DNA of 64,000 bases from an uncultured Gammaproteobacteria bacterium. Lineage in GTDB: Bacteria; Patescibacteriota; Patescibacteriia; UBA2196; GWA2-42-15. Both the position numbers and the translations under genes were made by a program. The notes beneath the pieces were generated by a model. It was not told the DNA's origin. It made no database searches and saw nothing but the letters and a program-made list of their open reading frames with translations. The DNA is taken from the NCBI GenBank assembly GCA_964573135.1, contig CAZNIO010000003.1:10881-74880 (forward strand), written 5' to 3'. Positions within the stretch are counted from its first letter, which is position 1; each line of letters begins with the position of its first letter. Of the stretch, positions 688 to 49,009 are shown piece after piece.

Positions 688-1761
688 TTATATCTTCTTA
701 ACTATTCCCTTTTGCGCATCCACTTCTATTGTGTCGCCATCTTTAAAGACGCGAGTGGCAATTTTGGTACCAATAACACACGGGATATTGAGTTCACGAG
801 AAACAATGGCTGCATGACAAGTAATACCTCCTTCATCGGTAACAATGGCTTTGGCTTTTTTCATGGCTGGTAAAAAATCAGGTACGGTCATGGTAGTTAC
901 TAATATATTACCCTGGTTAAAGCTGGCTACTTCATCGGCATTAAATATGGCCTGCACTTGTCCTTGAATCTTTCCTCCTTGGCAAGCGACTTGCCCTTTA
1001 GCTTCTGAGATATCGATTTTAATTTCTAAATCATCATATTGAAAGTTATTTTCTCTTAAAAATTCGGCAAAATCTTTATCCTCCATTAAATCTCCTTGAA
1101 AGAAAAGATAACCACGCAACCTGGCCTTAAGCCGTTCAAGATCAATTGTCGTGTTGCCTGACATCATCGCTTTTAGCTCTTCAAACCCCACCACTCTGAC
1201 AAATTTCTTGTCTATATTATTCTGCTCCAGTAATATTTCAATTAAATTGCGCCAATAAGTGTCAATTATCTCAAATTTGCCTTCTGAAAAAACACGTGCT
1301 TGATACCACCTTTGGCACAATTCTTCTGCCACTTCGGGGTATAGTTTGAAAAACTCATCTCGCCATCTACTGGGTAGCATATTGGCGAAAACAACCCAGG
1401 GGAAAAATATTTTTAATAATCTAATTGATTCATCAAAGTTATCAATCATAGCCTGTAAGTTGCCCTGCTCTACTTTTTTAATCAAATTTACTACTTGGTC
1501 AGTAATAAGCTTAAATTGTTGCAAAGATTCCTTGGAAAAAATGGGGTCACTAAAGCCCTTCTTGGAAATATATTTTTTAACTTTTTCCATCTCATCAATA
1601 TCTCGATATATTTCGACGGCTCGACCGTTAAATCTGGTAATTTGCTTATGAATACCCATGCCAAACTCTCGCTCAAAATCCTCAGACACTAAAATATGCC
1701 AAAGACCGACCATGCTTAAAGTGACATCCCGAGTAAAGTATAGTTCAATTTTTTGATTCAT
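688..1761 (-). CDS. PEP-utilising enzyme mobile-domain (phosphohistidine swivel) protein, shorter paralogue lacking an ATP-binding domain
   Basis: C-terminal ...VTDEGGITCHAAIVSRELNIPCVIGTK... matches the PEP-utilizers swivel His motif. The central region parallels the C-terminal two-thirds of the 1767..3302 protein. Confidence 0.7.
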   Translation of the reverse strand: MNQKIELYFTRDVTLSMVGLWHILVSEDFEREFGMGIHKQITRFNGRAVEIYRDIDEMEKVKKYISKKGFSDPIFSKESLQQFKLITDQVVNLIKKVEQGNLQAMIDNFDESIRLLKIFFPWVVFANMLPSRWRDEFFKLYPEVAEELCQRWYQARVFSEGKFEIIDTYWRNLIEILLEQNNIDKKFVRVVGFEELKAMMSGNTTIDLERLKARLRGYLFFQGDLMEDKDFAEFLRENNFQYDDLEIKIDISEAKGQVACQGGKIQGQVQAIFNADEVASFNQGNILVTTMTVPDFLPAMKKAKAIVTDEGGITCHAAIVSRELNIPCVIGTKIATRVFKDGDTIEVDAQKGIVKKI

Positions 1762-1766
1762 ATATG

Positions 1767-3302
1767 CTAAATTAACTTTTTAACTAACCCCTGAGTAGCA
1801 TCGACTGCTACCTTGTCACCATCTTTGAGGACTTGGGTGGCGATTTTAGTACCAATCACACAAGGAATATTGAGCTCACGAGAGACAATTGAAGCATGGC
1901 AGGTTAGACCACCTTCATCGGTGACAATGGCAGAGGCCTTTTTCATGGCAGCTACTATTTGTGGAGTGGTGGCTTGAGAAACCAAAATATCACCATGCTT
2001 CATTTTAGACATATTAGAAGCCATATTAACAATTTTAACGGTGCCTTTGGCTTTGCCAGGGCAAGCAGAGTCCCCTTGGAGTTGTTTAATTTTTCTGGCA
2101 CCTGCGGTATTTTTTTCTTTGGTTACTTTTTTGTTATACCAGTCATGTGCTTCTTGTCCGGTTAAAATTGTAATGGTGCCATTGTCGTTGGGCAAACAGA
2201 TATGAAACTTATATATCTCATTTAAATAATGAATATCAAGATTATACTTATTAAGAAGAGCTTTTTCAATTAGATCAAAAGGAGTGGATCTAACTTGATT
2301 AAGTGAAAGATGCAAGCGTCTACCTATTTCACGCAAAAACTTTTCTGCATGATAATATGACTTACTTTGATAGTCTTTTCTTCTGGGTTTTCCCCAGACT
2401 AATTTACCGGCTAAAAGTAAGATTTTTCGATTAAAAATATCTGGTTTTAATTCTTTGAGATATTTCTGCTTGAGTTGCTTGGTTTTATCTCGCTTGGCTT
2501 TAAGGTTTTTGAGTTTTTTACTTGGAGAAAGATTGTCCTTTAAATGGTTTTGTACGAACTCAAGGTAGTTGCTTTCATCAAAGGCAGGGCCAGCATAGGC
2601 ATAATATACCCAGGCATATTTTTGAGTGTGTTTTTGTAGTTGTTTATAGAATACGGGGTATTGAATTTTTAAATTATGTATATCAATTTTTTTAAGATCC
2701 CTAATCAGCTTTTTATTGCTATATGATTTATCAATAAGCTTGAGTAATCCTTCTTCTTGCTCTGAGGCAAATGACTTGTGTAAAGGAGAAGTAAAAACTT
2801 CAAAGTATTTATGATAATCTTTTTTGGATGTATTTTTTTCTAAGAATTTTTTCAAATTCTTTTCAACAAATGAAAAGTCTTGAAAATCTAAGATAGGCAA
2901 AGCAACACCATAAGCGTATAAAGTGCTTTGTTTGTCACAAAAACTTCTAAGGATTGATATAAGCTGCTTGGGGGTGGATTTGGTTAAATCTTTGTTCCAT
3001 ATATTCTTATATGTCCAAGCATTAAACTCTTGGCCAATCTTTTCGGTTTTGTCAATGATATTTTCAATAAAGTCATTGTTTTTTTCAACCTTGCTTTTGA
3101 GTTGGTTGTAAGTATCAACCCAGGTTTTTAAATCAGTCAAATATTTCATATCTTTATCCCAAGCAACAGTAGCCATTAAGGGGCGCGATACTTTGAATAT
3201 CTGGTGATACTTAAAAAAAGCGCTAACCCAAATCTGGTTGCGGAAAAATGGTGAATTAACATCACCGGCAACAACTTGCCATTTGTATTTCTTGTAGGAC
3301 AT
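1767..3302 (-). CDS. Rifampin-phosphotransferase/PEP-synthase-like protein, central domain + C-terminal phosphohistidine swivel domain
   Basis: C-terminal ...TDEGGLTCHASIVSRELNIPCVIGTK... swivel motif, 511 aa. Lies in-frame with and 3 nt downstream of the ATP-binding-domain ORF. Confidence 0.75.
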   Translation of the reverse strand: MSYKKYKWQVVAGDVNSPFFRNQIWVSAFFKYHQIFKVSRPLMATVAWDKDMKYLTDLKTWVDTYNQLKSKVEKNNDFIENIIDKTEKIGQEFNAWTYKNIWNKDLTKSTPKQLISILRSFCDKQSTLYAYGVALPILDFQDFSFVEKNLKKFLEKNTSKKDYHKYFEVFTSPLHKSFASEQEEGLLKLIDKSYSNKKLIRDLKKIDIHNLKIQYPVFYKQLQKHTQKYAWVYYAYAGPAFDESNYLEFVQNHLKDNLSPSKKLKNLKAKRDKTKQLKQKYLKELKPDIFNRKILLLAGKLVWGKPRRKDYQSKSYYHAEKFLREIGRRLHLSLNQVRSTPFDLIEKALLNKYNLDIHYLNEIYKFHICLPNDNGTITILTGQEAHDWYNKKVTKEKNTAGARKIKQLQGDSACPGKAKGTVKIVNMASNMSKMKHGDILVSQATTPQIVAAMKKASAIVTDEGGLTCHASIVSRELNIPCVIGTKIATQVLKDGDKVAVDATQGLVKKLI

Positions 3303-3305
3303 GTG

Positions 3306-4244
3306 TTAAAGAGTGGTTATGGGTCGACTTTGGGTAATGTACAGTTTGCCTCCAACCTCAGCCCATTCAATATCACAGGGGAATTTATAGTGCTTCTCGA
3401 TGTGGCCACATAGCTGAGCGAGCTCAATAATTTTTTTACCCATCAATTTTTGCTGCTCTTGTTTACTTTTTGGGACATTTATAGTTTTGGTAGCTTTACC
3501 CACTTTGGTAATCATTTTTTCTTGCTTGGCAATATTAATATCCATGATAGACCAATCACGCTTGTCAATAACATAAGAGTCGGGGGTAACCTGGCCCGAA
3601 ACGATGGCCTCACCCAGCCCCCAGCCGGCCTCAATAATCATTTGATTTTTGTCTTGAGTGACCGGATGAACGGTAAAGGTAATACCGGAAACTTCAGACT
3701 GAATCATGGCCTGGATAACAACGGCTACTGATACATGTGACTTGAGCATTTTTTTTTCATGGCGATAGAAAATAGCGCGTGGAGTAAAAAGAGATGACCA
3801 GCATTTTTTGACATTGTTAATGAGTTCTTTTTCTGAAGTGTTTAAATATGTTTCCAGCTCCCCTGCCCAAGAGGCTGTGCTTGAATCTTCGGCAGTAGCT
3901 GAACTTCTAACAGCGACTAACGGTGTTTTTAATTTTTTAAACTCGCTGGTAATTTCTTGAGCTAAGTCCTCCGGGAATGCAGTTTTGTCAATCATGTCGC
4001 GAATAACATTCGAATACCTATCAACTGAATTGATATCTTGGTAATTGACATTAGCGAGTTGGGCGCTGATGTCTTGTTTTAAATCAGTTTCTTCTAAAAA
4101 TCTATCAAAGGCATGCGAGGTGAATACAAAGCCAGGCGGGACTGGGATTTTGGCGTTTGTCATTTCACCGAGTGACGCCCCTTTACCCCCAGCTAAGAGT
4201 ACATCTTTTTTGGTAATTTGCTTAAAAGTTCTAGTATATGACAT
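3306..4244 (-). CDS. PEP synthase/PPDK N-terminal ATP-binding (ATP-grasp) domain protein
   Basis: N-terminal ...KKDVLLAGGKGASLGEMTNAKIPVPPGFVFTSHAFDRF... is the classic PPDK_N nucleotide-binding signature. 312 aa equals the N-terminal module of RPH/PpsA. Confidence 0.75.
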   Translation of the reverse strand: MSYTRTFKQITKKDVLLAGGKGASLGEMTNAKIPVPPGFVFTSHAFDRFLEETDLKQDISAQLANVNYQDINSVDRYSNVIRDMIDKTAFPEDLAQEITSEFKKLKTPLVAVRSSATAEDSSTASWAGELETYLNTSEKELINNVKKCWSSLFTPRAIFYRHEKKMLKSHVSVAVVIQAMIQSEVSGITFTVHPVTQDKNQMIIEAGWGLGEAIVSGQVTPDSYVIDKRDWSIMDINIAKQEKMITKVGKATKTINVPKSKQEQQKLMGKKIIELAQLCGHIEKHYKFPCDIEWAEVGGKLYITQSRPITTL

Positions 4245-4305
4245 GCGATTATTAATTAATTGATTATGTATATAATTTTAGCAAATTTAGGTCTAAAAGT
4301 GAAAA

Positions 4306-4332
4306 AACCCAGTTCATTGTGAACTGGGTTTT
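4306..4332. terminator. Bidirectional intrinsic terminator hairpin (CCCAGTTCA/TGAACTGGG) flanked by A- and T-runs
   Basis: Perfect 9-bp stem with loop ttg and AAAAAA upstream/TTTT downstream. Sits between the lipoprotein gene end and the PPDK_N gene start. Confidence 0.6.
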
Positions 4333-4363
4333 GAGCTATATTAATAGAGAGTTATTAAACATG

Positions 4364-5899
4364 TTAGTTACATGAGCCAGCAGATACAGCGTCTCCAGTG
4401 GCTTGTGCTGATAGAGCATTTTCACAGCCAGCAACATCATTATATTGACAGAAGTTCGTTTTAACAGTTTCTGCATCAATACCATTAAACTTGTACTTAT
4501 TATTAACCATCCAAGTAGGACTGGCTCCTATGCCCAAAGATTCTGCAAGCTTTATACTTTCTGAATGTAACGCTTGCCCTTCACTTGAGTTAAAACAAGT
4601 TTTAACTTTTGGAAAATTAACTGCGCAAGATGAATAGTCTCCCTGAATATCTTTGTTCCTACACCAAATGTAGTCCATATAGTTAGTAGGGTAGTGCTTG
4701 ATAGCACAAAGCTCTCTGATATTTTCATCAACTTCAGGCTGACCATGCAAAGAATTGAAAGTACCATCTGGGTTTTCTGAAGCAATGTAATTTATATGAA
4801 AATCCATATTATTGCCAAAGTTGTCTAAAACTTCTTCCATGGCGTCTAAGGCTTTTGTACCATAAGGACATTGGCTCATTACAAATACATCAAGTTGCTT
4901 GGCTACTTCCTCTCGACAAATAAGGTTGCCTGTGCAATCAGTGTCATCACAATCAGTAAGACCATTGCCTGTATCATCAGTATTGTTATCGCAAATTTCC
5001 TTTGTGGGGTTGTGAGTTGCACCAATTGCGAGTGTAAACATACCATTAACTTCTTTGAGATAGCGTTCAACTTGTGAAAAATTATCTGTATCTTTAACAT
5101 CACTTTCTAAAAGAACTGCTGGGAGCTGAGTTAATTCATTTTCTTCATAAAATTTCTTGCCTTTCTTTGAAGTATAGTCTAATTCTTCAAATTCAATACC
5201 AGAAAAAGTATTTTTAAGTTGCTCTTGTAATTGAATTGTGTCACACTCTGGCTTGGTACAACGAGAGTCATTTACAATATATGCAGTAAACTTTTTATCT
5301 TGTGGTAAATCCTTACATTTCGCCGGCTTATCATCAGTAGCTTCACAAATCTTTCTTTGCAATCCAATTTCTGTACGCGGACCAGTATATAGCTCATCTG
5401 CCATGTAAAAAGTTGGGCTACCAGATGCTTGAACTTCATTTGATTTTAGAATGCTGGTGGAAAAGAGATTTTTGCCCTCGTCACCTTCGGCACAAGTTTT
5501 AATTGTGTTGTAATCAACTCCATTCTCATTGGAGCATGACTCAAAGCTTGATTTTAAATCTTGATAGTTCTTGTTTTGGCAACTTACATAATCCCAAAAT
5601 TTATCTGAAAAATGCTCTTTAACACAAAGCTGGTAGATATTACCCTCAACTTCTGGCTCGCCGTGGAGAGATTGAAAAGTGCCGTCATTATTGTCAGTAG
5701 CAATATATTCAACATTAAAATTAACATAGTCAGTGAAATCTCCCATTATCTTATAGACTAAATCTTCGGCCTGGGAACCATAAGGACATTGGCTCATAAC
5801 ATACAAGTCAAAATTAATAGGATCTCCAGATACTTTCTTGATACAACCGGTAGTTACAAAGGCTAATAAAAGCAGAGATAAAATAACAATTTTTTTCAT
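4364..5899 (-). CDS. Cys-rich secreted lipoprotein with two tandem thiol-reductase-like (GILT-like) repeats
   Basis: Lipoprotein signal MKKIVILSLLLLAFVTTGC. Two internal repeats (YVMSQCPYGSQAEDLVYKIMGDF... / VFVMSQCPYGTKALDAMEEVLDNF...), each with ...SLHG(E/Q)PEV(E/D)xNI..LC... resembling GILT-family signatures. More than 30 Cys. Confidence 0.55.
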   Translation of the reverse strand: MKKIVILSLLLLAFVTTGCIKKVSGDPINFDLYVMSQCPYGSQAEDLVYKIMGDFTDYVNFNVEYIATDNNDGTFQSLHGEPEVEGNIYQLCVKEHFSDKFWDYVSCQNKNYQDLKSSFESCSNENGVDYNTIKTCAEGDEGKNLFSTSILKSNEVQASGSPTFYMADELYTGPRTEIGLQRKICEATDDKPAKCKDLPQDKKFTAYIVNDSRCTKPECDTIQLQEQLKNTFSGIEFEELDYTSKKGKKFYEENELTQLPAVLLESDVKDTDNFSQVERYLKEVNGMFTLAIGATHNPTKEICDNNTDDTGNGLTDCDDTDCTGNLICREEVAKQLDVFVMSQCPYGTKALDAMEEVLDNFGNNMDFHINYIASENPDGTFNSLHGQPEVDENIRELCAIKHYPTNYMDYIWCRNKDIQGDYSSCAVNFPKVKTCFNSSEGQALHSESIKLAESLGIGASPTWMVNNKYKFNGIDAETVKTNFCQYNDVAGCENALSAQATGDAVSAGSCN

Positions 5900-7883: not shown

Positions 7884-9380
7884 TTATTTAATACAAATAA
7901 TAGTATTGTTTTTGGTGGCCAGGCGGCCTAAATCAAGGCGGCTCTGATTTTCTCCATAAAGCGTATAGAGTTTCTGCCCCTTGATGATTTTATCGCCAAG
8001 GCGACAGTGCATGTGAATGCCAGCCAACTTTTCATGAGGAGCACCAAGATTGAAGCAAATTTCCACAATAGCTTTATTATCAATATGTTTAACTTTACCA
8101 CTCTTTTTTGAATGAATTTCATAACGCAAAGCGCCTAAAGCAACGGCGTCTGCTTTAATTGTGCCCTTGCCACCTTGAGCACGGATAATTTCAGCCATTT
8201 TCTTGGCAGCAACACCAGCCTCAATTTGATGCCTGGCAATATTTGTACCCCGTCCTTTTGGACAAAAACCTTTAAGTTCTAAAAGTTGCCCTGCAAGATG
8301 AATGGCTTTTTCCTCAAGATCTTTTGGTCTAAGCTCGTGCCTTTGTAATACACGCAAGACATCCCTGGCTTCAAGGGCAGGGCCAACACCGGCGCCAACT
8401 GGCTGATCGGCCTTAGTGGTAACCACTTTAACCTTTATCTTAAACATTTTGCCAAGAGCGATAAATTTCTTGGCTATACTTTTGGCGGTTTTTAAACTGT
8501 GAACTTTGGCGGTTTCTCCGTAAGGTAAATCAATAATTAAGTAATCAACGCCCATGGCAACTTTCTTGGCCATAATGGAAACGATCATCTTATCATAGGT
8601 TTCTAAAGATAGGGGTTTTTCAACATGGATAATTTTGTCATCAGCCGGCGCCATATTGATTCCCCCTCCCCAGACAAGACAGGCGTGAGTTTTTTTAACT
8701 ATTTTATTAATCTTATCGACGGAATGTTCAACAGGTGCTAAAACTTCCATGGTATCGGCTGTGCCAGCTGGAGAGGTGATAGCGCGTGATGAAGTTTTGG
8801 GGATGTAGAGACCGAGAGAGGCAATAATAGGGATAACAATCATGGTGGTGCGATTGCCAGGAATACCACCAATTGAATGTTTATCAACTACCTTTATTTT
8901 CATATTCATTTTGTCGCCACATTCAGCCATGGCGCGAGTCATATAATAGAGTTCTTTTAAGGGATATGGTTTTATAAAACCAGAAGCAACATAATAAGTG
9001 GTTTCGATTTTACCCAATTTACCGGTAGAAATATCGTGCATGATAGAAAAAATTTCATCATAACTTAAATCATGACCCAATAGCTTTTTATTAATAGCTT
9101 TAACTGATTCGGGCCGGGATTGTAAGATAACTTCAACAATATCCTGATCATCAATTGATTTTTTTTGCCAAACTTCTTTAAAAAGACCAACTTGGCCAAA
9201 GTTAACTTTACTGTTGGTATATTGGACTATGGCGGTAATTGATTTTTTACGACTCCATTTCAGAAGGACTCGGTCGCCTGGCATAATACCCTGACTGTCA
9301 GCTTCCTTTTCGCGCAAAACTATGATGGGATCACCACCAGAAGAAAAGTCTAATTTTTTTGATTTATAAAAAATTTTCAT
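7884..9380 (-). CDS. AMP phosphorylase (thymidine phosphorylase family, archaeal-type)
   Basis: 498 aa with an N-terminal extension and glycosyltransferase family 3 / pyrimidine-nucleoside phosphorylase core (KVVDKHSIGGIPGNRTT...). Operonic with RuBisCO and R15P isomerase. Confidence 0.8.
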   Translation of the reverse strand: MKIFYKSKKLDFSSGGDPIIVLREKEADSQGIMPGDRVLLKWSRKKSITAIVQYTNSKVNFGQVGLFKEVWQKKSIDDQDIVEVILQSRPESVKAINKKLLGHDLSYDEIFSIMHDISTGKLGKIETTYYVASGFIKPYPLKELYYMTRAMAECGDKMNMKIKVVDKHSIGGIPGNRTTMIVIPIIASLGLYIPKTSSRAITSPAGTADTMEVLAPVEHSVDKINKIVKKTHACLVWGGGINMAPADDKIIHVEKPLSLETYDKMIVSIMAKKVAMGVDYLIIDLPYGETAKVHSLKTAKSIAKKFIALGKMFKIKVKVVTTKADQPVGAGVGPALEARDVLRVLQRHELRPKDLEEKAIHLAGQLLELKGFCPKGRGTNIARHQIEAGVAAKKMAEIIRAQGGKGTIKADAVALGALRYEIHSKKSGKVKHIDNKAIVEICFNLGAPHEKLAGIHMHCRLGDKIIKGQKLYTLYGENQSRLDLGRLATKNNTIICIK

Positions 9381-9811
9381 AAAATACTATTTAAAACAAG
9401 TGATATACACAATCCGAAAATAAATCCACTTATAATCTCAAAATATGTATGTCCACTAATATCCAATAATCTACCATCTTTAAAAACTCGCTTAACACCT
9501 TTAATACCACTTTTGACCCATGATTGCTGTTCTATTTCCTGTTTTTCTCTATCTTCTAAGAGATTGTAGATAAAAAGAAGCATAACAGTAAAACAAAAAC
9601 TAAAAATTGAGCTAAGGCCATAATCACACCAAATGAGATATAGAACGCCTGTCAATACAGCGGTGTGTGTACTGGGAGCACCACCAGCCCATTGATAAAC
9701 CCAAGTGGCTGTACGTAGCTTTTTCTTTCGTCGATTGGCTAATAATCTAACAATGAATTTCAATGATTGACTCAAAAACCAAATAATAACAGGAAATAGA
9801 ATAAACTTCAT
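9377..9811 (-). CDS. Divergent PAP2-family membrane protein
   Basis: Motifs WAGGAPSTHTA and SGHTYFE resemble divergent PAP2 (acid phosphatase/haloperoxidase-related). Four predicted TM segments. 4-nt overlap with the AMP phosphorylase start. Confidence 0.6.
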   Translation of the reverse strand: MKFILFPVIIWFLSQSLKFIVRLLANRRKKKLRTATWVYQWAGGAPSTHTAVLTGVLYLIWCDYGLSSIFSFCFTVMLLFIYNLLEDREKQEIEQQSWVKSGIKGVKRVFKDGRLLDISGHTYFEIISGFIFGLCISLVLNSIL

Positions 9812-11078: not shown

Positions 11079-12001
11079 TTATATTGTTTTTTAAACTTAT
11101 TAATCTCACTTGGTTTAATAATTCCAAATTCAGTTATATAGCCTGTTATAAATTTGGCAGGAATTCTACCAAAAGCATAGTTTATTATCTTCAAGCCCTT
11201 AGGGGCTTTTGGCCAAATTTCTTTTTCATCCCTGATTTCTATTTTCATTTTCTTATCATGTGTACTTTTAAGCAGAGATCCGCACAGATAAAAAGGAATC
11301 TTTGATGTATGGGCTGCTAGAGCTATGCCAAAACTACCAATCTTATTCAAAGCCGATCCATCGGGTAAAATAACATCAAAACCTAAGAACACTTTGTTGA
11401 TTTTAATATTATCTCCCGAAATATCTGAGACCAAAAATGGAGCGGCTGAATCAACAACCATGGTATTATTAATTTTATGTTTGGCCAAATTAGTTGAAGT
11501 AGTCCTACCTTGGAATAGGGGTCGAGTTTCATCATTGTATACATGAAATTTCTTTTTATCTCTTTTGGCTTGGATCAAAATATTTTCTACAGTACGTGAA
11601 TGACAGTGAGTAAAGATGTTTTCTTTACTTTTTATTAGGCTCCCACCATGGGCGGTGATTTTTTGCCCATTACCATGTAGTAAGGCGGAAAAATCCTGTA
11701 CGTACTGGCGGGTTAATTTTTTTAAATCATTAACTTGAATAAGAGTAGCCTTGATTTTGGTGCTCTGTTTAAGTTCTGCATTCAAATATTTAAAAGCATT
11801 AACAGTCAGTGGCTCATTGGGTCTTGCTTGAGCTAGACTCTCCCCTACTCTTTTAGCTTCAGCTAAATACTTTTTGGTATCTTTCGTTTTGAAATTAATC
11901 AAATAATCTTGCCAAGCAGAAAGACTGGCACGACAAATGTTACTGGCGCCTTGAATTTTAATGGATTGAATATCTTTAATTGTTTGATTTAAGTTGGCCA
12001 T
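11069..12001 (-). CDS. Ribose-1,5-bisphosphate isomerase (eIF-2B alpha/beta/delta-like family)
   Basis: e2b2-like sequence (…GASNICRASLSAW…, …HSRTVENIL…, …CGSLLKS…). Sits upstream of RuBisCO as in the AMP-salvage pathway. Confidence 0.7.
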   Translation of the reverse strand: MANLNQTIKDIQSIKIQGASNICRASLSAWQDYLINFKTKDTKKYLAEAKRVGESLAQARPNEPLTVNAFKYLNAELKQSTKIKATLIQVNDLKKLTRQYVQDFSALLHGNGQKITAHGGSLIKSKENIFTHCHSRTVENILIQAKRDKKKFHVYNDETRPLFQGRTTSTNLAKHKINNTMVVDSAAPFLVSDISGDNIKINKVFLGFDVILPDGSALNKIGSFGIALAAHTSKIPFYLCGSLLKSTHDKKMKIEIRDEKEIWPKAPKGLKIINYAFGRIPAKFITGYITEFGIIKPSEINKFKKQYNWL

Positions 12002-12018
12002 AATAAAAACAAGAAAAA

Positions 12019-12390
12019 TTATATTTCTTGTACATTTAAATTCGTAATGTTTTTAAAATCACGCACATTGCGTGTTATAAGAGTACTACTTGTGAAAAGA
12101 GCCGTAGCAGCGATTACACTATCTGCTGTTTTGGTCCCATACATCTGACGAAGGAGTCCGGCCGTGCGTGCAATTCTTGAGTCAAGTGGAATAATAGCAA
12201 CTGTTTCAAGCAGTTTTTCTATTTCCATTGATTCCCATGGGGTGAGACCATGAAAACCGAAAAGCTCAACCTCGGTTATTGTGGATATATATAACGGAGC
12301 GTTCTTAACTAAAATACCACCTAAAACAGAAACGACCGCTGGGTCGTCTTTTAAATAATAGATAATCGCATTGGTGTCTAGGGTGTGCAC
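12019..12390 (-). CDS. vapC: PIN-domain protein (VapC-like toxin)
   Basis: 123 aa. N-terminal MHTLDTNAIIYYL (conserved Asp), later acidic residues typical of PIN. Confidence 0.65.
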   Translation of the reverse strand: MHTLDTNAIIYYLKDDPAVVSVLGGILVKNAPLYISTITEVELFGFHGLTPWESMEIEKLLETVAIIPLDSRIARTAGLLRQMYGTKTADSVIAATALFTSSTLITRNVRDFKNITNLNVQEI

Positions 12391-15362: not shown

Positions 15363-16772
15363 TTATATTAACTCCACAGGACAAAGCGTGGTGGCAGCCT
15401 CTTTAAGATTAGAGAAAGTGTCGTCCCCAATTGCTGCATTTATTAACGCTCCCCGGGCAGTAGCTTCAAAAGCTATTGGCCCATCCAAAGCACTAATAAA
15501 TAATCGAATTTCATCATTAACATCGCGATGGATAAACTTTTTGAAACATTGCTGAAAATACTTTGACCGACAAATACCTCCAGTCAAAATAATTTTTTTA
15601 ATGGGCTGTCCATTAATAACCTCTATCACCATATCTCCAACATGTGAAGACAATATCAAGGCGATTGACTGTTGCACGCTAGCAATTTTATTGCCCAATG
15701 GCAATTGAGCAAAATCAGACGGGTAGTATACTCGGTCATTTTCCTGCGTAATGATGATATTTTTTTGATTACAACTACTAAGAGCAAGTTTGTTCATCTC
15801 TGGATGATCCATGCTAGTGCACCATGATTTCTTAAAATCATAATCATACCATGACCCACAGTGATGCATCATGATGAGTGATAATTTCTTCTGGTAATAC
15901 TCAAAACTAAGAGACTTACCTGCGAGTGCCATTGTTGGCTCGCATATCCGATTCACCGTACCACTAGTACCGGCAGACACTATGATGCTTGACTCATCAT
16001 ATAACCCGCACCCTACGGCGGCGCCATGGTTATCTCCCAAGGGGGAATATATCTCCCATCCTTCTAGAATTCCTCTGATTACTCGCCATGCTGGATCGTT
16101 TCCCTGACCGGTGATATTATCAACAAACTCCCCACTTTGTATTACAGATGGAAACCAAATATAATTAATACCGACTTTATTGAGAAGGGTCTTGGCTAAT
16201 GTTTTTGTTTTTTGATCCAACAATCCATTACTTAATCCATCTGACGTACTCAATGAATCGGTATCGGTTAACTTACCGCCGATCCAATCGCCGGTGGTCA
16301 TGACTTTATAAACCCTATTCTTGAGAGATGGACATTGATTCAAAACCCACATTAACTTAACTATAATAAATCGATTTTCTATGGGTCCCACAATTTTTTC
16401 CGCACCCAACTCTTTGATGATTTTAATTTCCTTGATCTCTGGCTTGCCAAATTTAAACCGCCAGCTTAAAGCTGGAATCACTGGCTGTTTATACTGATCG
16501 AGTAGGACCATATCGTGCTGACGAACGGAGAATGACATCGACCCTCCATAAGAAAAATCCCATCCTCTATCATGGAGCTTAAAGAGGGCCTCAAGAATCA
16601 TTTTGGGCACTTCAGACAAATCATGCGCTGATTCATTCTTCCAACTGGTAGAACCTCGCATGGGAATTGACGCTAAGTCAAATTCACCTGACTGGCTCAT
16701 AACGAAGAGCTTAAGTGCACTAGTACTTAAATCACCACCTGAGTGTCTTGCAATTTTTTTTGTCATTATCAA
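15363..16772 (-). CDS. FGGY-family carbohydrate kinase (divergent)
   Basis: GDNHGAAVGCGL, SAGTSGTV, ILTGGICRSKYFQQ…, EATARGALINAAIG match FGGY conserved blocks. Confidence 0.6.
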   Translation of the reverse strand: MIMTKKIARHSGGDLSTSALKLFVMSQSGEFDLASIPMRGSTSWKNESAHDLSEVPKMILEALFKLHDRGWDFSYGGSMSFSVRQHDMVLLDQYKQPVIPALSWRFKFGKPEIKEIKIIKELGAEKIVGPIENRFIIVKLMWVLNQCPSLKNRVYKVMTTGDWIGGKLTDTDSLSTSDGLSNGLLDQKTKTLAKTLLNKVGINYIWFPSVIQSGEFVDNITGQGNDPAWRVIRGILEGWEIYSPLGDNHGAAVGCGLYDESSIIVSAGTSGTVNRICEPTMALAGKSLSFEYYQKKLSLIMMHHCGSWYDYDFKKSWCTSMDHPEMNKLALSSCNQKNIIITQENDRVYYPSDFAQLPLGNKIASVQQSIALILSSHVGDMVIEVINGQPIKKIILTGGICRSKYFQQCFKKFIHRDVNDEIRLFISALDGPIAFEATARGALINAAIGDDTFSNLKEAATTLCPVELI

Positions 16773-16954: not shown

Positions 16955-17030
16955 GCGCTCATAGCTCAGCTGGTAGAGCAGCTCCCTTTTAAGGAGAAGG
17001 TCCTAGGTTCGAATCCTAGTGGGCGTACCA
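16955..17030 (+). tRNA. tRNA-Lys (anticodon TTT), CCA encoded
   Basis: Cloverleaf: acceptor GCGCTCA/TGGGCGT, D-arm GCTC/GAGC, anticodon loop CTTTTAA, T-arm CTAGG-TTCGAAT-CCTAG, 76 nt. Confidence 0.9.
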
Positions 17031-17062
17031 CAAAAAACATCTCGAGTAGAGGTGTTTTTTGG
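17031..17062 (+). terminator. Intrinsic terminator after tRNA-Lys (ACATCTC-gagta-GAGGTGT + T6)
   Basis: 7-bp hairpin followed by TTTTTT immediately after the CCA. Confidence 0.6.
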
Positions 17063-17090
17063 TTAAAGGGGATCTGCTAGTAGCTCCGTC
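17031..17090 (+). repeat. Direct repeat copy L (terminator + GGTTAAAGGGGATCTGCT module)
   Basis: About 55 of 60 nt are shared with 19180..19236 (aaaaa[a/g]cat[c]ctcg[a/c]g[t]agagg[g]tgtttttt[t]ggttaaa[g/a]gggatctgct[a/c]g[t/c]agctc). Confidence 0.7.
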
Positions 17091-17196
17091 TGGCGCGCCA
17101 CAGGTATTTTAGTGTTTTTTGATTCAAGCCCAAAGGTGCTGTATAATAACAGTGAAAGGTCGTGATTTAAATTATTAATCTTAAAATTATAATTTT

Positions 17197-17826
17197 ATGA
17201 AAAAATTAGGTTTTATTTTAATCTTAATGCTTTTGGTAGTCGGAGTTACGGTCACGGCCAATGCAGCTAGTAAGGCTCCGGGTAAAGGAGGTAGTGATAA
17301 ATGTACCACCATTCAAAGTGGTGAACTTTTAGCCTCTGATGGAACTGTAATCGAACTTGGCTTTGATGCTTGGGGATATAATTATCAAGGCCGTATGTTT
17401 AAAGGTGGTTATTGCGACGCTTATCGCGATGCAGCCTGGTGCCAAGAATGGACTGAGGATAAATTGGCCATGAAATGGAATGACGCTTGGTTATCAAATA
17501 AGGATTGTGACGGGGATGGTTTTCTTGATCGCCATTATGGCCATGATTCATATATTGGATCTGGCGCTTGGCTGACAAATCATCAATCAGGCGAATATGA
17601 AGAAGAAGGTGAAACATGTAAGTGGAATTACTTTGTCAAAATTGTGGCCGCTCCAGCTGACGCTTATGTTGAAGATGGTTATTGGCATACAGCAGAAGGT
17701 GCAGAAATTGGAGAGGTTATTTGGGGAGCTTTTGCTATTATTCAGGAAGTAGAAAATGATCCTTGCGCTGGAGCTCATGGCATGCAATATGTTTCTCCTG
17801 ATAGGGCGGGGCTAGGTAATTGGTAA
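17197..17826 (+). CDS. Secreted Cys/Trp-rich protein with a DxDxDG calcium-binding-like motif
   Basis: Signal peptide MKKLGFILILMLLVVGVTVTANA. Contains DCDGDGFLDRH. No known family. Confidence 0.6.
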   Translation: MKKLGFILILMLLVVGVTVTANAASKAPGKGGSDKCTTIQSGELLASDGTVIELGFDAWGYNYQGRMFKGGYCDAYRDAAWCQEWTEDKLAMKWNDAWLSNKDCDGDGFLDRHYGHDSYIGSGAWLTNHQSGEYEEEGETCKWNYFVKIVAAPADAYVEDGYWHTAEGAEIGEVIWGAFAIIQEVENDPCAGAHGMQYVSPDRAGLGNW

Positions 17827-17891
17827 AAAGGGATATATTAATAAGACCCACTCAAACAATTGAGTGGGTCTTTGACTACTTAAAAATGGCG

Positions 17892-17975
17892 TTAATAAAT
17901 CGTTTATGACACTGTAGGCATATAGATATATTCCTCACTTTTAGCAATTCTGGTTCTAACAGCGTCCACGACCCC
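17892..17975 (+). repeat. Repeat A copy 1 (conserved ~85-nt non-coding element; candidate sRNA)
   Basis: ttaataaa…tatgacactgtaggcatatagatatattcct… is shared with copies at 19091 and 20804. The 3' part differs in a 12-nt block. Confidence 0.7.
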
Positions 17976-17989
17976 ATAAAAATTATTAA

Positions 17990-18015
17990 ACCCCCTATTT
18001 TAGGGGGTTTTGAAG
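17990..18015. terminator. Bidirectional terminator (CCCCCT-atttt-AGGGGG + T-run)
   Basis: Perfect 6-bp GC stem with an A-run before and a T-run after. Serves Repeat A1/ORF 17197 (+) and the dehydrogenase gene (-). Confidence 0.65.
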
Positions 18016-18046
18016 TTGAGTAAAAGTACCTACAAGCTGGTGTGTC

Positions 18047-18997
18047 CTAGTTCACTTTATTTCTAGGCTTTTCCAAAATAAAAGACTGCAGATTCTCTAT
18101 AAGAATACCTTGTTGTTTTTCTATTGCCTCTTTGGTCTTTACTGCAATCGATGGATATAATATTACGTTTTTGGTTTTCATTAGCTTATTTTTATGTTCG
18201 CTTGGAATTGTGTCAAAATACGTTTGTATAAAGCAGAATCTATTTTCATTAAGATTCTTAATTAAGTTATCAAAATCAAAAACATCCGTATGGCTTATGG
18301 AAATTATTACTGAATTTTCTTTAATATTATTTAAGACAACCCCATTCATGATCGAATTTGTTGTTTTATCATCAGGAATAAACAATCCTATAATATCACT
18401 TTCCTTGCACAAATCATTAAGCTTACGAAATTGGATGCCTCCTTGCTCTAGATTTTCTTTTTTTGATTTGGAAAAATGTTTGACATTCATTCCTAAGCCC
18501 AGTGCAAGTTCAGCAACTCTTTTACCAATCCTGCCTAAACCAATAATGCCAAAGGTTTTGTTTTTTAATTCCCAGCCAAGATATTGGTCAACCCCAAAAT
18601 TATTCTTTTTAACATTGGCTCGCGCATTTTCTAGCTCTCTTGCACAGGAAAGCAAGGTAGCAAAAACAAATTCTGCAATACTATTATCACAATATCCCGC
18701 TGTGTTTGTCACAACAATATTTTTTGAAGCTGCATAATCAACATCAATTTTGCTAACTGAGATTGAATCAGTTCCTATATATTTTAAATTTAGAGCGAGG
18801 TCAATTATTTTTTTATTAATCTTAGTTAAGTATTTTATCAAAAGAACATCTGCATCTTTGACCTCTTTATATAAACTCTGTTTATTAGAACTGCTTACAA
18901 AAACCAAAAAAATTGATAGGGATTTTAATCTATCAAGAACATCATTTTTTAACGACTTTTTAGTGTAATCGATAAGGACAATTTTATTCACTTTCAT
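18047..18997 (-). CDS. D-isomer-specific 2-hydroxyacid dehydrogenase family protein (glycerate/phosphoglycerate dehydrogenase-like)
   Basis: Rossmann motif GIIGLGRIGKRVAELALGLGMNV. 316 aa is typical for the family. Confidence 0.75.
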   Translation of the reverse strand: MKVNKIVLIDYTKKSLKNDVLDRLKSLSIFLVFVSSSNKQSLYKEVKDADVLLIKYLTKINKKIIDLALNLKYIGTDSISVSKIDVDYAASKNIVVTNTAGYCDNSIAEFVFATLLSCARELENARANVKKNNFGVDQYLGWELKNKTFGIIGLGRIGKRVAELALGLGMNVKHFSKSKKENLEQGGIQFRKLNDLCKESDIIGLFIPDDKTTNSIMNGVVLNNIKENSVIISISHTDVFDFDNLIKNLNENRFCFIQTYFDTIPSEHKNKLMKTKNVILYPSIAVKTKEAIEKQQGILIENLQSFILEKPRNKVN

Positions 18998-19090
18998 TGG
19001 GTTACTGGCATTTAGTTGATGATTTAATTTTAGCTAAATTATGGGAAAGATGCAAAATTGTCAGGATCTACATTGTTTTTTGTATTGCAT

Positions 19091-19179
19091 AATTAATAAA
19101 GAAATTATGACACTGTAGGCATATAGATATATTCCTGACTTTCCTGGATTCTAGTTCTAACAGAGTCCACGACCCAGTA
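19091..19179 (+). repeat. Repeat A copy 2
   Basis: Identical to copy 3 over ~89 nt (aattaataaagaaattatgacactgtagg…gtccacgacccagta). Confidence 0.75.
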
Positions 19180-19236
19180 AAAAAGCATCCTCGCGAGAGG
19201 GTGTTTTTTTGGTTAAAAGGGATCTGCTCGCAGCTC
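19180..19236 (+). repeat. Direct repeat copy R (terminator CATCCTC-gcga-GAGGGTG + T7 + GGTTAAAAGGGATCTGCT)
   Basis: Near-copy of the tRNA-Lys 3' flank 17031..17090. The embedded hairpin + T-run is a terminator for Repeat A2. Confidence 0.7.
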
Positions 19237-19311
19237 AAAAAAATTGCCTAAACTTAATTTTTTATTTATACTTAAATGTATATATAATAATTAATTATCA
19301 ATAATAAAAGT

Positions 19312-20778
19312 ATGAAAAAATTTATTTTTATGGCCTTATGCATAATTTTGCCATTCAACAATATATCAGCTAATAACGAGGTTACATTAGAAATTATTAC
19401 TCCCAAAGAGGGGCAGTATCTTGCCGTAAACGACTCTATTACTTTTAGTTGGGTGCAAACAGGCTTAGATAAGCTAATGCTAGAAGCACAAATTTGTTGG
19501 CATGATGATATGCAGAGCTTATCCGCAGTAAAGGAAATACATTGTGCTGGAAATTCGGATATTACAAATGGGCTTATTGATGTCGACACTAATGCAAGCA
19601 ATAATTCATTTGAATGGCAACTCCCCAAAATGTTTAAGTCTGGTTTATATAAAATATGGGCTAAAGGTTATGCTAATACTGGGACAAGCGATTCTGTTTA
19701 TTTGGAAGATAAGATGAATCAATATGTAATAATAGATAAGGGAGACCAGAATTTTAGTTTAATTAATTCTACTAGTTTAAATAACATCAGTCAGAACAAG
19801 GTGATTGTTGATATTGGCACTAACAAGCTTTATGCAAATGCGTCAAGATATTTTGTTAGATGGAAAACTCCATGTAACGGCCAATACGCTAATGTCTGGC
19901 TGGTAGCAGAGGTTTTACAAGATGGAACCGAGATAGTTATTCCTATGACTTTTTATGAATGGCATTATGAAACGAATAAATTAAATTTAGATGTGTTCAA
20001 TAATAAGAATATATATTATGGATTAATTCCCGGTTCTGGAAGTACAGACAAAACTCAGCACCATCAATTACCTAGTGATCCCAGTTCGGGTAAGTTTAAT
20101 TTTGCACAAATTTTAATTAAAAGATCACCTGCGGGTGAATATTATACCGAACGAGTGTCTAGCAACTTATATACAAAAGGAAAAGAGCATTATAAGATAA
20201 GGGTTGATGTTCATGGTAACAATTGTTCAGCTACAGGATTAAGTAGATATATTTATCCTACTGCTGTTCTAGATGAACCTATACCATCGCTACCTTTGGA
20301 TAATGTTGTTAATGATTCCCCTGAGACAACCACTATCAGTGATAATAACAACACTTCGCCTAAACTAGTTGCAAAAAAAGCAACAATTGATAAAACATTG
20401 AGTAATAGGCTCAAAGGCAAACTCCTCCTCCAAGTCCAAAACCGTGGCCGTATTTGGTATGTAAATCCAGGTGACGCCAGGCGACATGAGGTAACATTCG
20501 CCAATGCTTTACCTTTATTCGAAAAGTTATCATTGGGTATTACTGATGCTGATTTAGATAAAATTCCAATGCACAATGATAATTGGACATCATCGATTGG
20601 TGATAGATTAAAAGGTAAAATACTCTTACAAGTACAAGATAGAGGAAGAATTTGGTACGTAGATTTCAATGGTAAAAAATGGGAAGTAACATGGAAAAAT
20701 TTAATGACGTTGTTTGAAAGTTTGGCTTTGGGTATCACTGATAGTGATTTGGATAAGATACAGATGGAGGGATTATAA
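19312..20778 (+). CDS. Secreted protein with two C-terminal ~55-aa tandem repeats
   Basis: Signal peptide MKKFIFMALCIILPFNNISA. C-terminal repeats LKGKLLLQVQNRGRIWYVNPGDARRHEVTFANALPLFEKLSLGITDADLDKI / LKGKILLQVQDRGRIWYVDFNGKKWEVTWKNLMTLFESLALGITDSDLDKI. Confidence 0.7.
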   Translation: MKKFIFMALCIILPFNNISANNEVTLEIITPKEGQYLAVNDSITFSWVQTGLDKLMLEAQICWHDDMQSLSAVKEIHCAGNSDITNGLIDVDTNASNNSFEWQLPKMFKSGLYKIWAKGYANTGTSDSVYLEDKMNQYVIIDKGDQNFSLINSTSLNNISQNKVIVDIGTNKLYANASRYFVRWKTPCNGQYANVWLVAEVLQDGTEIVIPMTFYEWHYETNKLNLDVFNNKNIYYGLIPGSGSTDKTQHHQLPSDPSSGKFNFAQILIKRSPAGEYYTERVSSNLYTKGKEHYKIRVDVHGNNCSATGLSRYIYPTAVLDEPIPSLPLDNVVNDSPETTTISDNNNTSPKLVAKKATIDKTLSNRLKGKLLLQVQNRGRIWYVNPGDARRHEVTFANALPLFEKLSLGITDADLDKIPMHNDNWTSSIGDRLKGKILLQVQDRGRIWYVDFNGKKWEVTWKNLMTLFESLALGITDSDLDKIQMEGL

Positions 20779-20803
20779 TTAAGAAATAATAGGATATTTT
20801 TTA

Positions 20804-20891
20804 ATTAATAAAGAAATTATGACACTGTAGGCATATAGATATATTCCTGACTTTCCTGGATTCTAGTTCTAACAGAGTCCACGACCCAGTA
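20804..20891 (+). repeat. Repeat A copy 3
   Basis: Identical to copy 2 through gacccagta. Followed by its own distinct terminator. Confidence 0.75.
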
Positions 20892-20894
20892 CCA

Positions 20895-20921
20895 AAAACC
20901 CCGACAAATGTCGGGGTTTTT
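20895..20921. terminator. Bidirectional terminator (CCCCGACA-aat-GTCGGGG, A-run/T-run)
   Basis: Perfect 8-bp stem. Downstream of Repeat A3 (+) and of hup (-). Confidence 0.7.
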
Positions 20922-20950: not shown

Positions 20951-21244
20951 CTAGAGTACTGCGTCCTTGGCAGCTTTAGCAACACGGAACTTAACTACAG
21001 TCTTAGCAGGGATCTGGATGGTTTCACCAGTAGCTGGATTTCTACCTTCGCGAGCTTTTCTGTCTACCTTAACTAATTTCCCAAGTCCAGGAAGAATGAA
21101 TTCGCCGCTGTTTACAACTTCGCTATAAGCTAGCTCAGTTAGATTCTCCATGAAAGAGATGATATCTTTCTTACTCATGTCGTTTTTCTCGGCAAGTGCC
21201 TGCATGAGTTGAGATTTTGTCAATTTGGCCATATTTTTTTTCAT
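20951..21244 (-). CDS. hup: DNA-binding protein HU
   Basis: …GFGKFEV-like core (ILPGLGKLVKVDRKAREGRNPATGETIQIPAKTVVKFRVAKAAKDAV). Possible start at the internal Met (21232). Confidence 0.85.
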   Translation of the reverse strand: MKKNMAKLTKSQLMQALAEKNDMSKKDIISFMENLTELAYSEVVNSGEFILPGLGKLVKVDRKAREGRNPATGETIQIPAKTVVKFRVAKAAKDAVL

Positions 21245-39322: not shown

Positions 39323-39923
39323 TAAATACTTTAAGTCGACTTAACGGCCAGCCGCGGAGCCAGGTCTTGCCGATGATATCGCCGTCTTGGATGGAGCCAA
39401 ACATGCGTGAGTCAAGCGAAGCAGAGCGGTTATCTCCCATGATATAGTACTCATCGCTATCAAGCTCTAGACTTTCATTGCCTTGAGTGTAGGTATTTGG
39501 CAGATAGAGATCTTCATTTAAGGTAAACCCCTGGGGGTTATTGACATCGCTAATATTTATATGGCCATCTTTGACGGTAATGGTTTCACCGGGTAAACCG
39601 ATGATGCGTTTTATAAAATATTGTGAGCGGTCATAGGGATATTTGAAAACAATAACATCACCGCGCTCTGGCTCATTAAAGCGATATGAAATTTCATCGA
39701 TAATTAGATATTCATGATCATAGAAGTTGGGCTCCATGGAAGCGCCCTTAACATAGAAGGGCTGGATAACAAAGTAGCGGATGGGTATAATAATGACTAA
39801 AGAGATAATGATTACCTTTAGGGTCTCCCATATAAAATCCTTAAATTGCCCCTTAACTTTATCCTTATCGGTTTCGGGCTCGAAACTGGGCTCTTTTTCT
39901 TGGGGCTGTTGAATAAATGTCAT
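39306..39923 (-). CDS. lepB: Signal peptidase I
   Basis: TM anchor, catalytic GASMEPNF (Ser) and …GDNRSASLDSR… box. Confidence 0.85.
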   Translation of the reverse strand: MTFIQQPQEKEPSFEPETDKDKVKGQFKDFIWETLKVIIISLVIIIPIRYFVIQPFYVKGASMEPNFYDHEYLIIDEISYRFNEPERGDVIVFKYPYDRSQYFIKRIIGLPGETITVKDGHINISDVNNPQGFTLNEDLYLPNTYTQGNESLELDSDEYYIMGDNRSASLDSRMFGSIQDGDIIGKTWLRGWPLSRLKVFNDKVY

Positions 39924-40120
39924 AATAATAGATTAATAATTTGATAATTTAATGATACTTAGTTTTTCCAATAAATGGCATTTTTCCCCTAAAAAAAGGG
40001 TAATTTATACTCATACTAGCATATTTTTTTGATTGACGCAAGGCGCGAAATGGTGTATGGTGAAGTTAAAGATAAGCTAAAAAATTGCTTTATCGTAGAT
40101 TTTTGATAAAGTAAAAATTT

Positions 40121-43911: not shown

Positions 43912-43986
43912 GGTCCCTTCGTCTAGTGGTTAGGACACTAGGTTTTCATCCTAGAAACAGGGGTTCGATTCCCCTAGGGACTACCA
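43912..43986 (+). tRNA. tRNA-Glu (anticodon TTC), CCA encoded
   Basis: Anticodon arm CTAGG-TTTTCAT-CCTAG, T-arm AGGGG-TTCGATT-CCCCT, acceptor GGTCCCT/AGGGACT (G1-U72). Confidence 0.85.
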
Positions 43987-43987
43987 A

Positions 43988-44020
43988 AGAGGACTCACTC
44001 GCAAGATTGGGTCTTTTTTG
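43988..44020 (+). terminator. Putative terminator after tRNA-Glu (imperfect hairpin + T6)
   Basis: aagaggactcactcgcaagattgggtctttttt is about 80% identical to the module after Repeat B2 (47088..47121). Confidence 0.4.
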
Positions 44021-44172
44021 ATTGGAATGTTAACGCAGGAAGTGATTTTCTAGCTTCAATTGAAATATAGATAAGTTGGTTGCAGAAAATATCTATGAAA
44101 TGTACACATTTGACAGATAAAAAAGTTTTATGTATACTTAAAATATATTGAATAATTAAAAAAGTTTTAAAT

Positions 44173-45378: not shown

Positions 45379-45407
45379 GTTTGCTAAATTTTATACACTT
45401 TACAACC

Positions 45408-45479: not shown

Positions 45480-45500
45480 TTCCAGATTTCCCCTTAGATC

Positions 45501-46803: not shown

Positions 46804-46807
46804 AAAG

Positions 46808-47087: not shown

Positions 47088-47093
47088 AAAGAA

Positions 47094-49008: not shown

Positions 49009-49009
49009 T

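Follow-up and report, generated by a model that had tools for sequence, protein, structure and literature searches.

In the 64,000-nt stretch of contig CAZNIO010000003.1 analysed here (the window), a non-coding element of about 90 nt, Repeat A, was found in three copies that mark the boundaries of three single-gene modules lying 3' of a tRNA-Lys gene. By FtsZ similarity the organism is a Candidatus Kuenenbacteria bacterium, and the window also forms part of JGI contig Ga0075122_10000042 (94.9 kb). A modest balance of probability favours Repeat A as the arm that the cassette contributes to an attachment-type recombination site, with integrase-less single-gene modules stacked at the tRNA-Lys 3' end. 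Both ends of the insert carry a copy of the terminal hexamer of the tRNA; at each internal joint the repeat is followed by a stub of this hexamer and by the terminator with which the next module starts, and the conserved arm ends at a fixed base. Sequence comparison with related genomes places the insertion exactly between the tRNA body and its ancestral terminator. The original prediction had seen in the copies a family of small-RNA (sRNA) genes and offered a cassette boundary as the other reading; it is the latter that is supported, by the empty site, the duplicated GTACCA and the order of modules seen in comparison with relatives.

A repeat finder placed the three copies in one family of direct, non-coding repeats, all on the + strand (17882-17983, 19083-19184 and 20795-20896), with identities to the reference copy at 19083-19184 of 76% for 17882-17983 and 95% for 20795-20896. 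The 31-mer TATGACACTGTAGGCATATAGATATATTCCT of the 5' block occurs exactly three times, at 17905, 19106 and 20818, always on the + strand (expected in 100 shuffles: 0), and the 23-nt 3' block GGTTCTAACAGCGTCCACGACCC matched the window at the same three places only, with no matches from shuffles. The cores lie where they had been predicted, and copies 2 and 3, described as identical over about 89 nt, proved by alignment to be identical over exactly 90 nt (19090-19179 and 20802-20891). Copy 1 shares with them a 32-nt exact block (17904-17935) and the 3' block, its differences being clustered in an internal 12-nt block, in agreement with the earlier description. Identity between the copies starts and stops abruptly and the cargos are unrelated. 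The distinct G+C hairpin and T run that had been noted 3' of every copy, differing in sequence from copy to copy, was confirmed in the sequence and by a terminator scan. The orientation of Repeat A tracks the tRNA and not the cargo, the module II gene being inverted. Neither a profile nor a covariance model turned up a fourth copy in the window or in ~16 kb of the contig outside it; the covariance-model check proposed earlier was in this way run on approximately 80 kb, with three copies inside 3 kb and 0 in the 77 kb more of contig. Four long contigs (50-200 kb) in the collection carry the locus, all in the same arrangement. Assembly collapse is unlikely because the repeat is shorter than a read and its flanks are unique, and the copies show no insertion sequence (IS) features that would make them the terminal repeats of such an element, the other possibility that had been considered.

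The locus begins with tRNA-Lys ending in GTACCA, followed by terminator A, a promoter-like site, ORF209 (open reading frame for 209 aa) and copy 1 with ATA; it continues with terminator C, the inverted dehydrogenase gene and copy 2 with GTA, then with terminator A', a promoter-like site, ORF488 and copy 3 with GTACCA, and closes with terminator B and the HU gene (Table 1). The modules measure approximately 0.95, 1.2 and 1.7 kb and contain one gene each and no integrase. GTACCA stands at both ends of the insert (17025-17030 and 20889-20894), while the internal joints carry GTA at copy 2 (19177-19179) and ATA at copy 1 (17976-17978), each followed by an A run. The segments 17031-17086 and 19180-19236 are paralogous, with 91% identity over 32 nt, and copy 2 sits at the position of the tRNA body because the sequence after it is paralogous to that after the real tRNA-Lys.

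To place these joints in context, FtsZ loci from five related Kuenenbacteria (L003, L005, L008, L011 and L093) were compared; the matches listed in a scan of the genome collection with FtsZ were mostly distant Patescibacteria. HU is a neighbour in all five loci. In L003, L005 and L011 (FtsZ 81-83% identical) tRNA-Lys lies directly before a terminator with the convergent HU gene beyond, the sequence reading ...GTACCAAAA and terminator after tRNA-Lys, in full ...GGGCGTACCAAAA, hairpin and T run. The window has the same terminator after copy 3 (...GACCCAGTACCAAAAACCCCGAC...; in the alignment of terminator B, ...GACCCAGTACCAAAAACCCCGACAAATGTCGGGGTTTTTAT in the window and ...GGGCGTACCAAAAACCCCGACAAAATTCGTCGGGGTTTTTAT in L003), and here 3.86 kb separate it from tRNA-Lys. 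The sequence at 20892-20921 is therefore the ancestral tRNA-Lys trailer and terminator, orthologous to the sequence right after tRNA-Lys in these three relatives. Because the relatives' tRNA-Lys terminator comes after copy 3, this copy holds the place of the tRNA body, the common part being only GTACCA onward. The left arm at 17031-17086 was absent 3' of tRNA-Lys in the relatives, the BLAST match ending 5-15 nt past the tRNA, and modules I-III were absent from the relatives' loci. Repeat A was detected neither at the syntenic locus of any of the five genomes nor in 1.49 Mb of Patescibacteria loci. L093, the closest of the relatives compared (FtsZ 90%), has neither tRNA nor Repeat A before GTACCA and terminator B; a third, unrelated sequence (...GGTTTCGG) abuts GTACCA at this joint and the neighbouring gene is different. 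In L008 tRNA-Lys has the opposite orientation relative to HU, and its final 10 nt contain the start of 3.2 tandem 117-nt units (99% matches; 11808-12177). The site beside tRNA-Lys has thus been used repeatedly and is a recombination hot spot.

Other traces of rearrangement were observed near tRNA genes. Each 117-nt unit of L008 contains a tRNA-Lys-like 3' half in which the anticodon and T loops are replaced by other hairpins. In L003 an orphan tRNA-Lys promoter with the first 19 nt of the tRNA lies approximately 150 nt upstream of the complete gene (9388-9490 and 9162-9237) and looks like the scar of another recombination event in the tRNA gene. In L052, a distant Patescibacteria genome, the last ~19 nt of tRNA-Val and 106 nt downstream are duplicated 295 nt further on with 100% identity (3464-3941); such doubling of tRNA 3' ends seems to be common in the group. 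An FGGY-family kinase gene (15363-16772) lies 5' of tRNA-Lys in the window, between RNase J and the tRNA, and is absent from the same interval in L005 and L011; it is another gene gain at this locus.

Only one true homologue of Repeat A was found outside the window, at L092:912-984 (contig JACXTT010000251.1, 50% GC), by 3'-block patterns in collection scans that covered exact patterns only. This copy keeps TATGA.A.TGTAGG and the full 3' block, 23 nt of which are identical between it and copy 1, and the AT-rich centre is missing. It lies after a 70-aa ORF, approximately 300 nt downstream of tRNA-Asn and of a 19-nt duplicate of the 3' end of this tRNA, and is followed by its own terminator and the convergent purA gene. 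The copy ends in ...GACCCA/GAGCTA and terminator, the local tRNA-Asn ending in GAGCCA; by hand calculation the probability of such a 5/6 hexamer match at a fixed position is ~0.005. In both organisms the element thus stops at the same base, with the last six bases of the local tRNA after it. The 19-nt duplicate (GGTCCTAGCTGCGGAGCCA) is a direct copy of the tRNA-Asn 3' end and lies approximately 195 nt past tRNA-Asn in L092 (322-608), with an inverted copy of the tRNA-Asn T arm (CTAGGACTCGAAC) between the tRNA and the 19-nt duplicate, and the region looks like a tiny island remnant. A 20-mer of the 5' block had no match in metagenome contigs, a set that does not contain the source contig itself, and this absence is weak evidence because the set lacks the source sample. 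The 3'-block patterns had no match in viral contigs, BLAST searches of phages and plasmids with Repeat A gave chance-level matches only, and a literature search on sRNAs and tRNA islands of the Candidate Phyla Radiation (CPR) yielded nothing specific.

A second array is present in the window at tRNA-Glu (Table 1). Copies 1-3 of its repeat, Repeat B, end in ...GT/CTACC(A/G), the last six bases of tRNA-Glu being CTACCA, and copies 2 and 3 are then followed by terminators homologous to the tRNA-Glu terminator (43978-44023, 47080-47125 and 48052-48097), while copy 4 corresponds to the native flank upstream of tRNA-Val. The copies are separated by single genes, encoding an AAA_14/DUF4143 protein, a DHH-family protein, an NYN protein and a 127-aa ORF, with GC of 0.26-0.33. 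Repeat A showed no likeness to Repeat B, nor to the upstream flank of any tRNA in the window. The tRNA-Glu array is an independent second case of the same design as the tRNA-Lys array. Given this second array, the architecture is no one-off and represents, for this genome, a recurring way of keeping extra genes at tRNA 3' ends.

The cargo of the tRNA-Lys modules is accessory and horizontally transferred. ORF209 encodes a Cys-rich protein with 3918 homologues, the best 120 of 3918 being 63-81% identical, which occur in Anaerolineae, Gemmatimonadota, DPANN archaea (Diapherotrites, Nanoarchaeota), CPR and others; the gene is strikingly conserved and has been transferred across domains. A linkage between Repeat A and ORF209 was rejected, since the element was not behind any of the three foreign homologues examined (3/3; P0126, P0140 and P0137). 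The ORF209 and ORF488 proteins are unrelated to each other; the N-terminal part of the latter has almost no relatives, and its C-terminal ~130 aa form a repeat domain common in Kuenenbacteria surface proteins. The dehydrogenase gene, convergent and inverted relative to the other two cargos, is also served by terminator C. Beyond HU come the FtsZ and FtsA genes.

Table 1. Features of the tRNA-Lys and tRNA-Glu arrays, with positions in the window.
Feature	Position	Strand	Evidence	Remarks
tRNA-Lys(UUU), docking site	16955..17030	+	ARAGORN; Rfam tRNA 68 bits	last six bases GTACCA 17025-17030 are the left core copy
Module I left arm: A run, terminator A (hairpin ~17038-17054 and T run), block GGTTAAAGGGGATCTGCTAGTAGCTC	17031..17086	+	repeat family D2, alignment	
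ORF209, module I cargo: 209-aa secreted protein	17197..17826	+		no Pfam match; promoter-like site 17119-17147
Repeat A copy 1	17892..17978	+	sequence, repeat finder	ends ...GACCCC/ATA, then A run
Terminator C hairpin, start of module II	17988..18010	undefined	terminator scan on - strand, sequence	
D-2-hydroxyacid dehydrogenase, module II cargo	18047..18997	-	Pfam 2-Hacid_dh_C 1.9e-32	promoter-like site 19056-19027 (-)
Repeat A copy 2	19090..19179	+	sequence, repeat finder	ends ...GACCCA/GTA (GTA 19177-19179)
Module III left arm: A run, terminator A', GGTTAAAAGGGATCTGCTCGCAGCTC	19180..19236	+	repeat family D2	paralogue of 17031-17086
ORF488, module III cargo: 488-aa secreted protein	19312..20778	+		promoter-like site 19244-19272
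Repeat A copy 3	20802..20891	+	sequence, repeat finder	ends ...GACCCA/GTA
CCA and terminator B	20892..20921	undefined	terminator scan; comparison with L003, L005, L011	
HU gene, conserved right neighbour	20951..21244	-	Pfam Bac_DNA_binding 2.7e-26	anchors synteny
tRNA-Glu array	43912-49096			tRNA-Glu 43912-43986
Repeat B, 86 nt, four copies	45403-45488, 47012-47097, 47984-48069, 48951-49036			unrelated to Repeat A

If Repeat A is an attachment arm, each module would once have been a circle in which Repeat A, core and terminator or left arm were contiguous, as kept at copy 2 (19090-19236). A trans-acting site-specific recombinase encoded elsewhere would join the site on the circle to the tRNA gene at a point some six bases short of the gene's end. 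With the left arm would come a new terminator replacing that of the tRNA, and successive insertions would stack the modules. The AT-rich centre and the two conserved blocks of the repeat may be protein-binding sites and, once installed, the 90-nt repeats would also allow loss or shuffling of modules by homologous recombination. A broader and distinctly speculative proposal is an integron-like form of gene capture in CPR, in which the last six bases of a tRNA would be the docking point for tiny circular one-gene cassettes and the recombinase, acting in trans, would possibly be of an unrecognised kind. Each cassette might then consist of a terminator, a promoter, one gene and a ~90-nt arm, occupying the same relative position in the Lys, Glu and Asn tRNA genes; as tentatively, the arm sequence might be particular to each array and a fresh tRNA terminator might arrive with each cassette. 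Genomes of the CPR/Patescibacteria are very small and contain few recognisable mobile elements, genetic tools are lacking, and little is understood of how these bacteria acquire genes. The presence of two such arrays at tRNA 3' ends within 64 kb would indicate that genes can be acquired by a compact and repeatable route and, if a dedicated recombinase exists, the ~90-nt arm with the tRNA hexamer would be a simple insertion site usable for engineering these organisms.

Several observations weigh against Repeat A as an attachment arm. No Phage_integrase, Resolvase, rve, transposase or other recombination domain was detected in contig positions 2712-82666 (80 kb); the missing recombinase is the main gap of the attachment-arm model, the mechanism of which we infer. 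With 6 nt (~10 if the A run is counted) the duplicated core is short, and the two internal joints lack CCA. No circular form, excision product or other module order was seen, all long contigs with the locus being alike, and known tRNA-integrating islands are far larger than these modules of 1-1.7 kb, each equipped with a promoter and a terminator. The Repeat A family has four known members (three in the window and that of L092), and because there are only four its conservation could reflect recent copying. Finally, a 31-nt part of Repeat A is homologous, in opposite orientation, to the sequence flanking tRNA-Lys of L008 on its 5' side (26/31, z = 8), and Repeat B is homologous (66%) to the native tRNA-Val upstream flank. 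Neither match is predicted by the model, and they hint that the arms come from ordinary tRNA-flanking DNA and that the modules may be circularised inter-tRNA segments.

These two flank matches also favour an explanation without specific protein recognition, in which the repeat is ordinary flanking DNA of a donor locus that was dragged along, for example the upstream flank of a gene that followed a tRNA, inter-gene segments being excised and re-inserted, and now serves only as 90 nt of homology for RecA-dependent duplication, deletion or shuffling. The lack of a recombinase nearby would fit, as would the 100% identity of copies 2 and 3, which recent duplication or gene conversion would give. 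However, the first insertion, between tRNA body and terminator, has only 6-10 nt in common with its target, and homologous recombination is unfit for this step because such a length is too little. In addition, the differences of copy 1 are clustered in one 12-nt block with both end blocks kept, and the end blocks are also kept in the 50%-GC organism of L092, joined there to the terminal hexamer of the local tRNA. Dragged-along flanking DNA is considered an unlikely explanation, though not a negligible one.

The sRNA family of the original prediction, in which each copy is a promoter-to-terminator unit for a ~80-100-nt trans-acting RNA, perhaps module-borne, with a conserved 3' block that would serve for pairing, was not borne out: no Rfam match, promoter of normal spacing or covariation was found, the terminators are borrowed and the element is absent from relatives. 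Several features do speak for it. A + strand hairpin and T run follow within 5-15 nt in 4/4 copies (window and L092), copy 1 has the same 23-nt 3' block as an organism of 50% GC, and the window copies contain a -10-like TATATT; furthermore, any transcript of copy 2 would need its own promoter because no co-directional gene lies upstream. The sigma70-like pair that had been proposed, TTATGACA and TATATT, is indeed present, but with a 15-nt spacer, and it is not listed by the promoter scan, which requires a spacer of 16-18 nt. The promoter-like sites of the neighbouring genes have a 17-nt spacer, ATGACA-15 nt-TATATT is the only candidate, and its -10 part is deleted in L092. Searches of Rfam at gathering and permissive thresholds returned nothing but tRNAs, the best match at the copies being 34 bits versus a gathering score of 80; this match, to BTnc231, was dismissed as a terminator-driven chance match.

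The pairings suggested for an RNA product are possible, but GGAUUCU/AGAGUCC forms only in copies 2 and 3 and not in copy 1 or L092, and GACACUGU/ACAGNGUC loses two pairs in L092. Compensatory substitutions, proposed as a check, were not found: the RNAalifold consensus of the four sequences has an energy of -4.4 kcal/mol with 0/15 pairs compensatory and two broken in L092, a covariation test of low power because only four sequences are available. When the terminators are included, folds of the single sequences exceed shuffles in stability (z = -2.2 to -4.7), an excess owed largely to the terminator hairpins. Nor did the claim that each unit has its own terminator hold, the terminator after copy 3 being that of the relatives' tRNA-Lys and the one after copy 2 a paralogue of this genome's tRNA-Lys terminator; the terminators appear to be inherited from the tRNA-Lys trailer or the next module. 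Together with the absence of the element from the five syntenic loci and the 1.49 Mb of Patescibacteria loci, these data make an sRNA family improbable, and they caution that a conserved short repeat plus terminator beside tRNA genes is not enough to call sRNA genes.

Other identities considered for the copies were set aside. ARAGORN and the Rfam tRNA model made no call of a tRNA or tRNA-like gene at the copies, even at E <= 10, and local alignment of Repeat A to tRNA-Lys was not above shuffles. Resemblances noted by eye (a T-loop-like GGTTCTAA, in copy 1 also CTCACTTTTAG resembling an anticodon loop, CCA in register, and complementarity of the 3' end to the acceptor strand of tRNA-Lys) were not significant and no cloverleaf could be drawn. 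A mini-ORF, ATG ACA CTG TAG in the window and ATG AAA ATG TAG in L092, is taken as coincidence because it has no ribosome-binding site. A T7/SP6-type promoter (TGACACTGTAGG resembling TGACACTATAG) was dropped, no single-subunit RNA polymerase having been seen.

Copies 1 and 3 and that of L092 lie between a co-directional ORF and a terminator, copy 3 and that of L092 with no intervening terminator, a position that would suit a cis-acting RNA element in the cargo 3' untranslated region, transcribed with the upstream gene and controlling stability, processing or termination. Copy 2, however, is upstream of and divergent from the gene of its module, a strong hairpin (~17844-17871) separates copy 1 from ORF209, no conserved structure was found and the three ORF209 homologues examined elsewhere are without the element, so that such a role is very unlikely.

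An exact 22-nt match to the Repeat A 5' block, ACTGTAGGCATATAGATATATT, was found at 11648-11669 of the myovirus contig L091 (49% GC), in the 63-nt gap between the terminase and head-tail adaptor genes and with extra flanking resemblance; by our own estimate ~0.01-0.05 chance matches are expected, and the match could be chance or a shared DNA motif. If the 5' block contained a regulatory DNA site or an unusual promoter that a phage also uses, placed before the adaptor gene, this match could be explained, but it occurs once in that phage, which has 49% GC and is unlikely to infect this host, there is no canonical hexamer pair, and a terminator within 60 nt faces each window copy, which leaves the idea with hardly any credibility.

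Two features elsewhere on the contig were observed. Approximately nine consecutive paralogous genes with PEP-utilizers domains (~360-540 aa each) follow a PPDK_N gene at 688-5899 of the window and further upstream on the contig (L102 9059-21420); in so small a genome a tandem expansion of this kind is unusual. A minimum of cumulative GC skew at ~39300-40200, with a switch of gene orientation from - to + at 39923/40121, suggests a replication origin or terminus.

Among known systems, Repeat A resembles trans-acting sRNA genes in its length of ~90 nt, intergenic position, hairpin and T run directly downstream and occurrence in several copies, but differs from them in having no promoter of normal spacing, conserved fold or covariation, in using its neighbours' terminators and in being absent from close relatives. 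Short interspersed intergenic repeats (REP/BIME, ERIC, Correia/NEMIS, MITEs) are ~100 nt, non-coding and often located between convergent genes near terminators. Repeat A shares the length, the non-coding nature and the proximity to terminators; it is not dispersed and is always in one orientation. No MITE or IS remnant features were detected in it, that is, no terminal inverted repeats and no target-site duplication except the tRNA stub.

In integrons, a cassette with its attC site is inserted at attI by IntI, and CALINs are clusters of attC without an integrase. The modules resemble such cassettes in being small, mostly single-gene units of unrelated function, each ending in a recombination-associated repeat (60-140 nt in integrons and CALINs), in carrying widely transferred cargo of unknown function and in needing no integrase in the unit. 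Unlike integron cassettes, they have no IntI in 80 kb, dock at a tRNA 3' end and not at attI, and have their own promoters and terminators, with a promoter-like site before each cargo and one cargo inverted, integron cassettes being promoterless and co-oriented. The attC palindrome R''(RYYYAAC)...R'(GTTRRRY) has no inverted-repeat pair in the element, and the - strand of copy 2 folds no better than shuffles (z = -0.7); on visual inspection, neither copy 1 nor copy 3 has a GTTRRRY in register with TTCTAAC. Comparison by eye with consensus sequences gave no convincing match to an integron attC, a Xer/dif-like site or Tn7 or IS ends, and no cognate enzyme was found.

The closest comparison is with tandem genomic islands at tRNA/tmRNA genes, which are established and include integrase-less cis-mobilizable elements (CIMEs) arising by accretion (PMC4383910; PMC5704250; PMC3146451). 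CIMEs lack a recombinase by definition (PMC5704250). Such islands occur at the tRNA-Lys 3' end in Streptococcus agalactiae and, in tandem, at ssrA in Dehalococcoides (PMC5704250, PMC3146451, PMC4383910). In Dehalococcoides their boundaries are formed by a 20-bp repeat of the ssrA end, a conserved 15-bp motif lies upstream of it on the island side, and some units have no integration genes (PMC3146451). The tRNA-Lys locus shares with these islands the insertion at a tRNA 3' end that leaves the tRNA intact, the empty site in relatives, several units in tandem, units without recombination genes, and accessory cargo. Also shared is the direct repetition of the tRNA end, found at the distal boundary as well as at internal joints, a point weakened by its length here of 3-6 nt (~10 with the A run) versus about 20-50 nt, and a conserved island-side sequence beside that repeat, comparable to the 15-bp motif in Dehalococcoides. 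Differences are the single-gene units of 1-1.7 kb, where known islands span several to tens of kb, the ~90-nt arm, which is unrelated to the tRNA, the units that start with a terminator replacing that of the tRNA, the CPR host and the lack of an integrase in 80 kb. On this comparison the locus is filed as a variant of tRNA-targeted tandem integration and not as an sRNA family.

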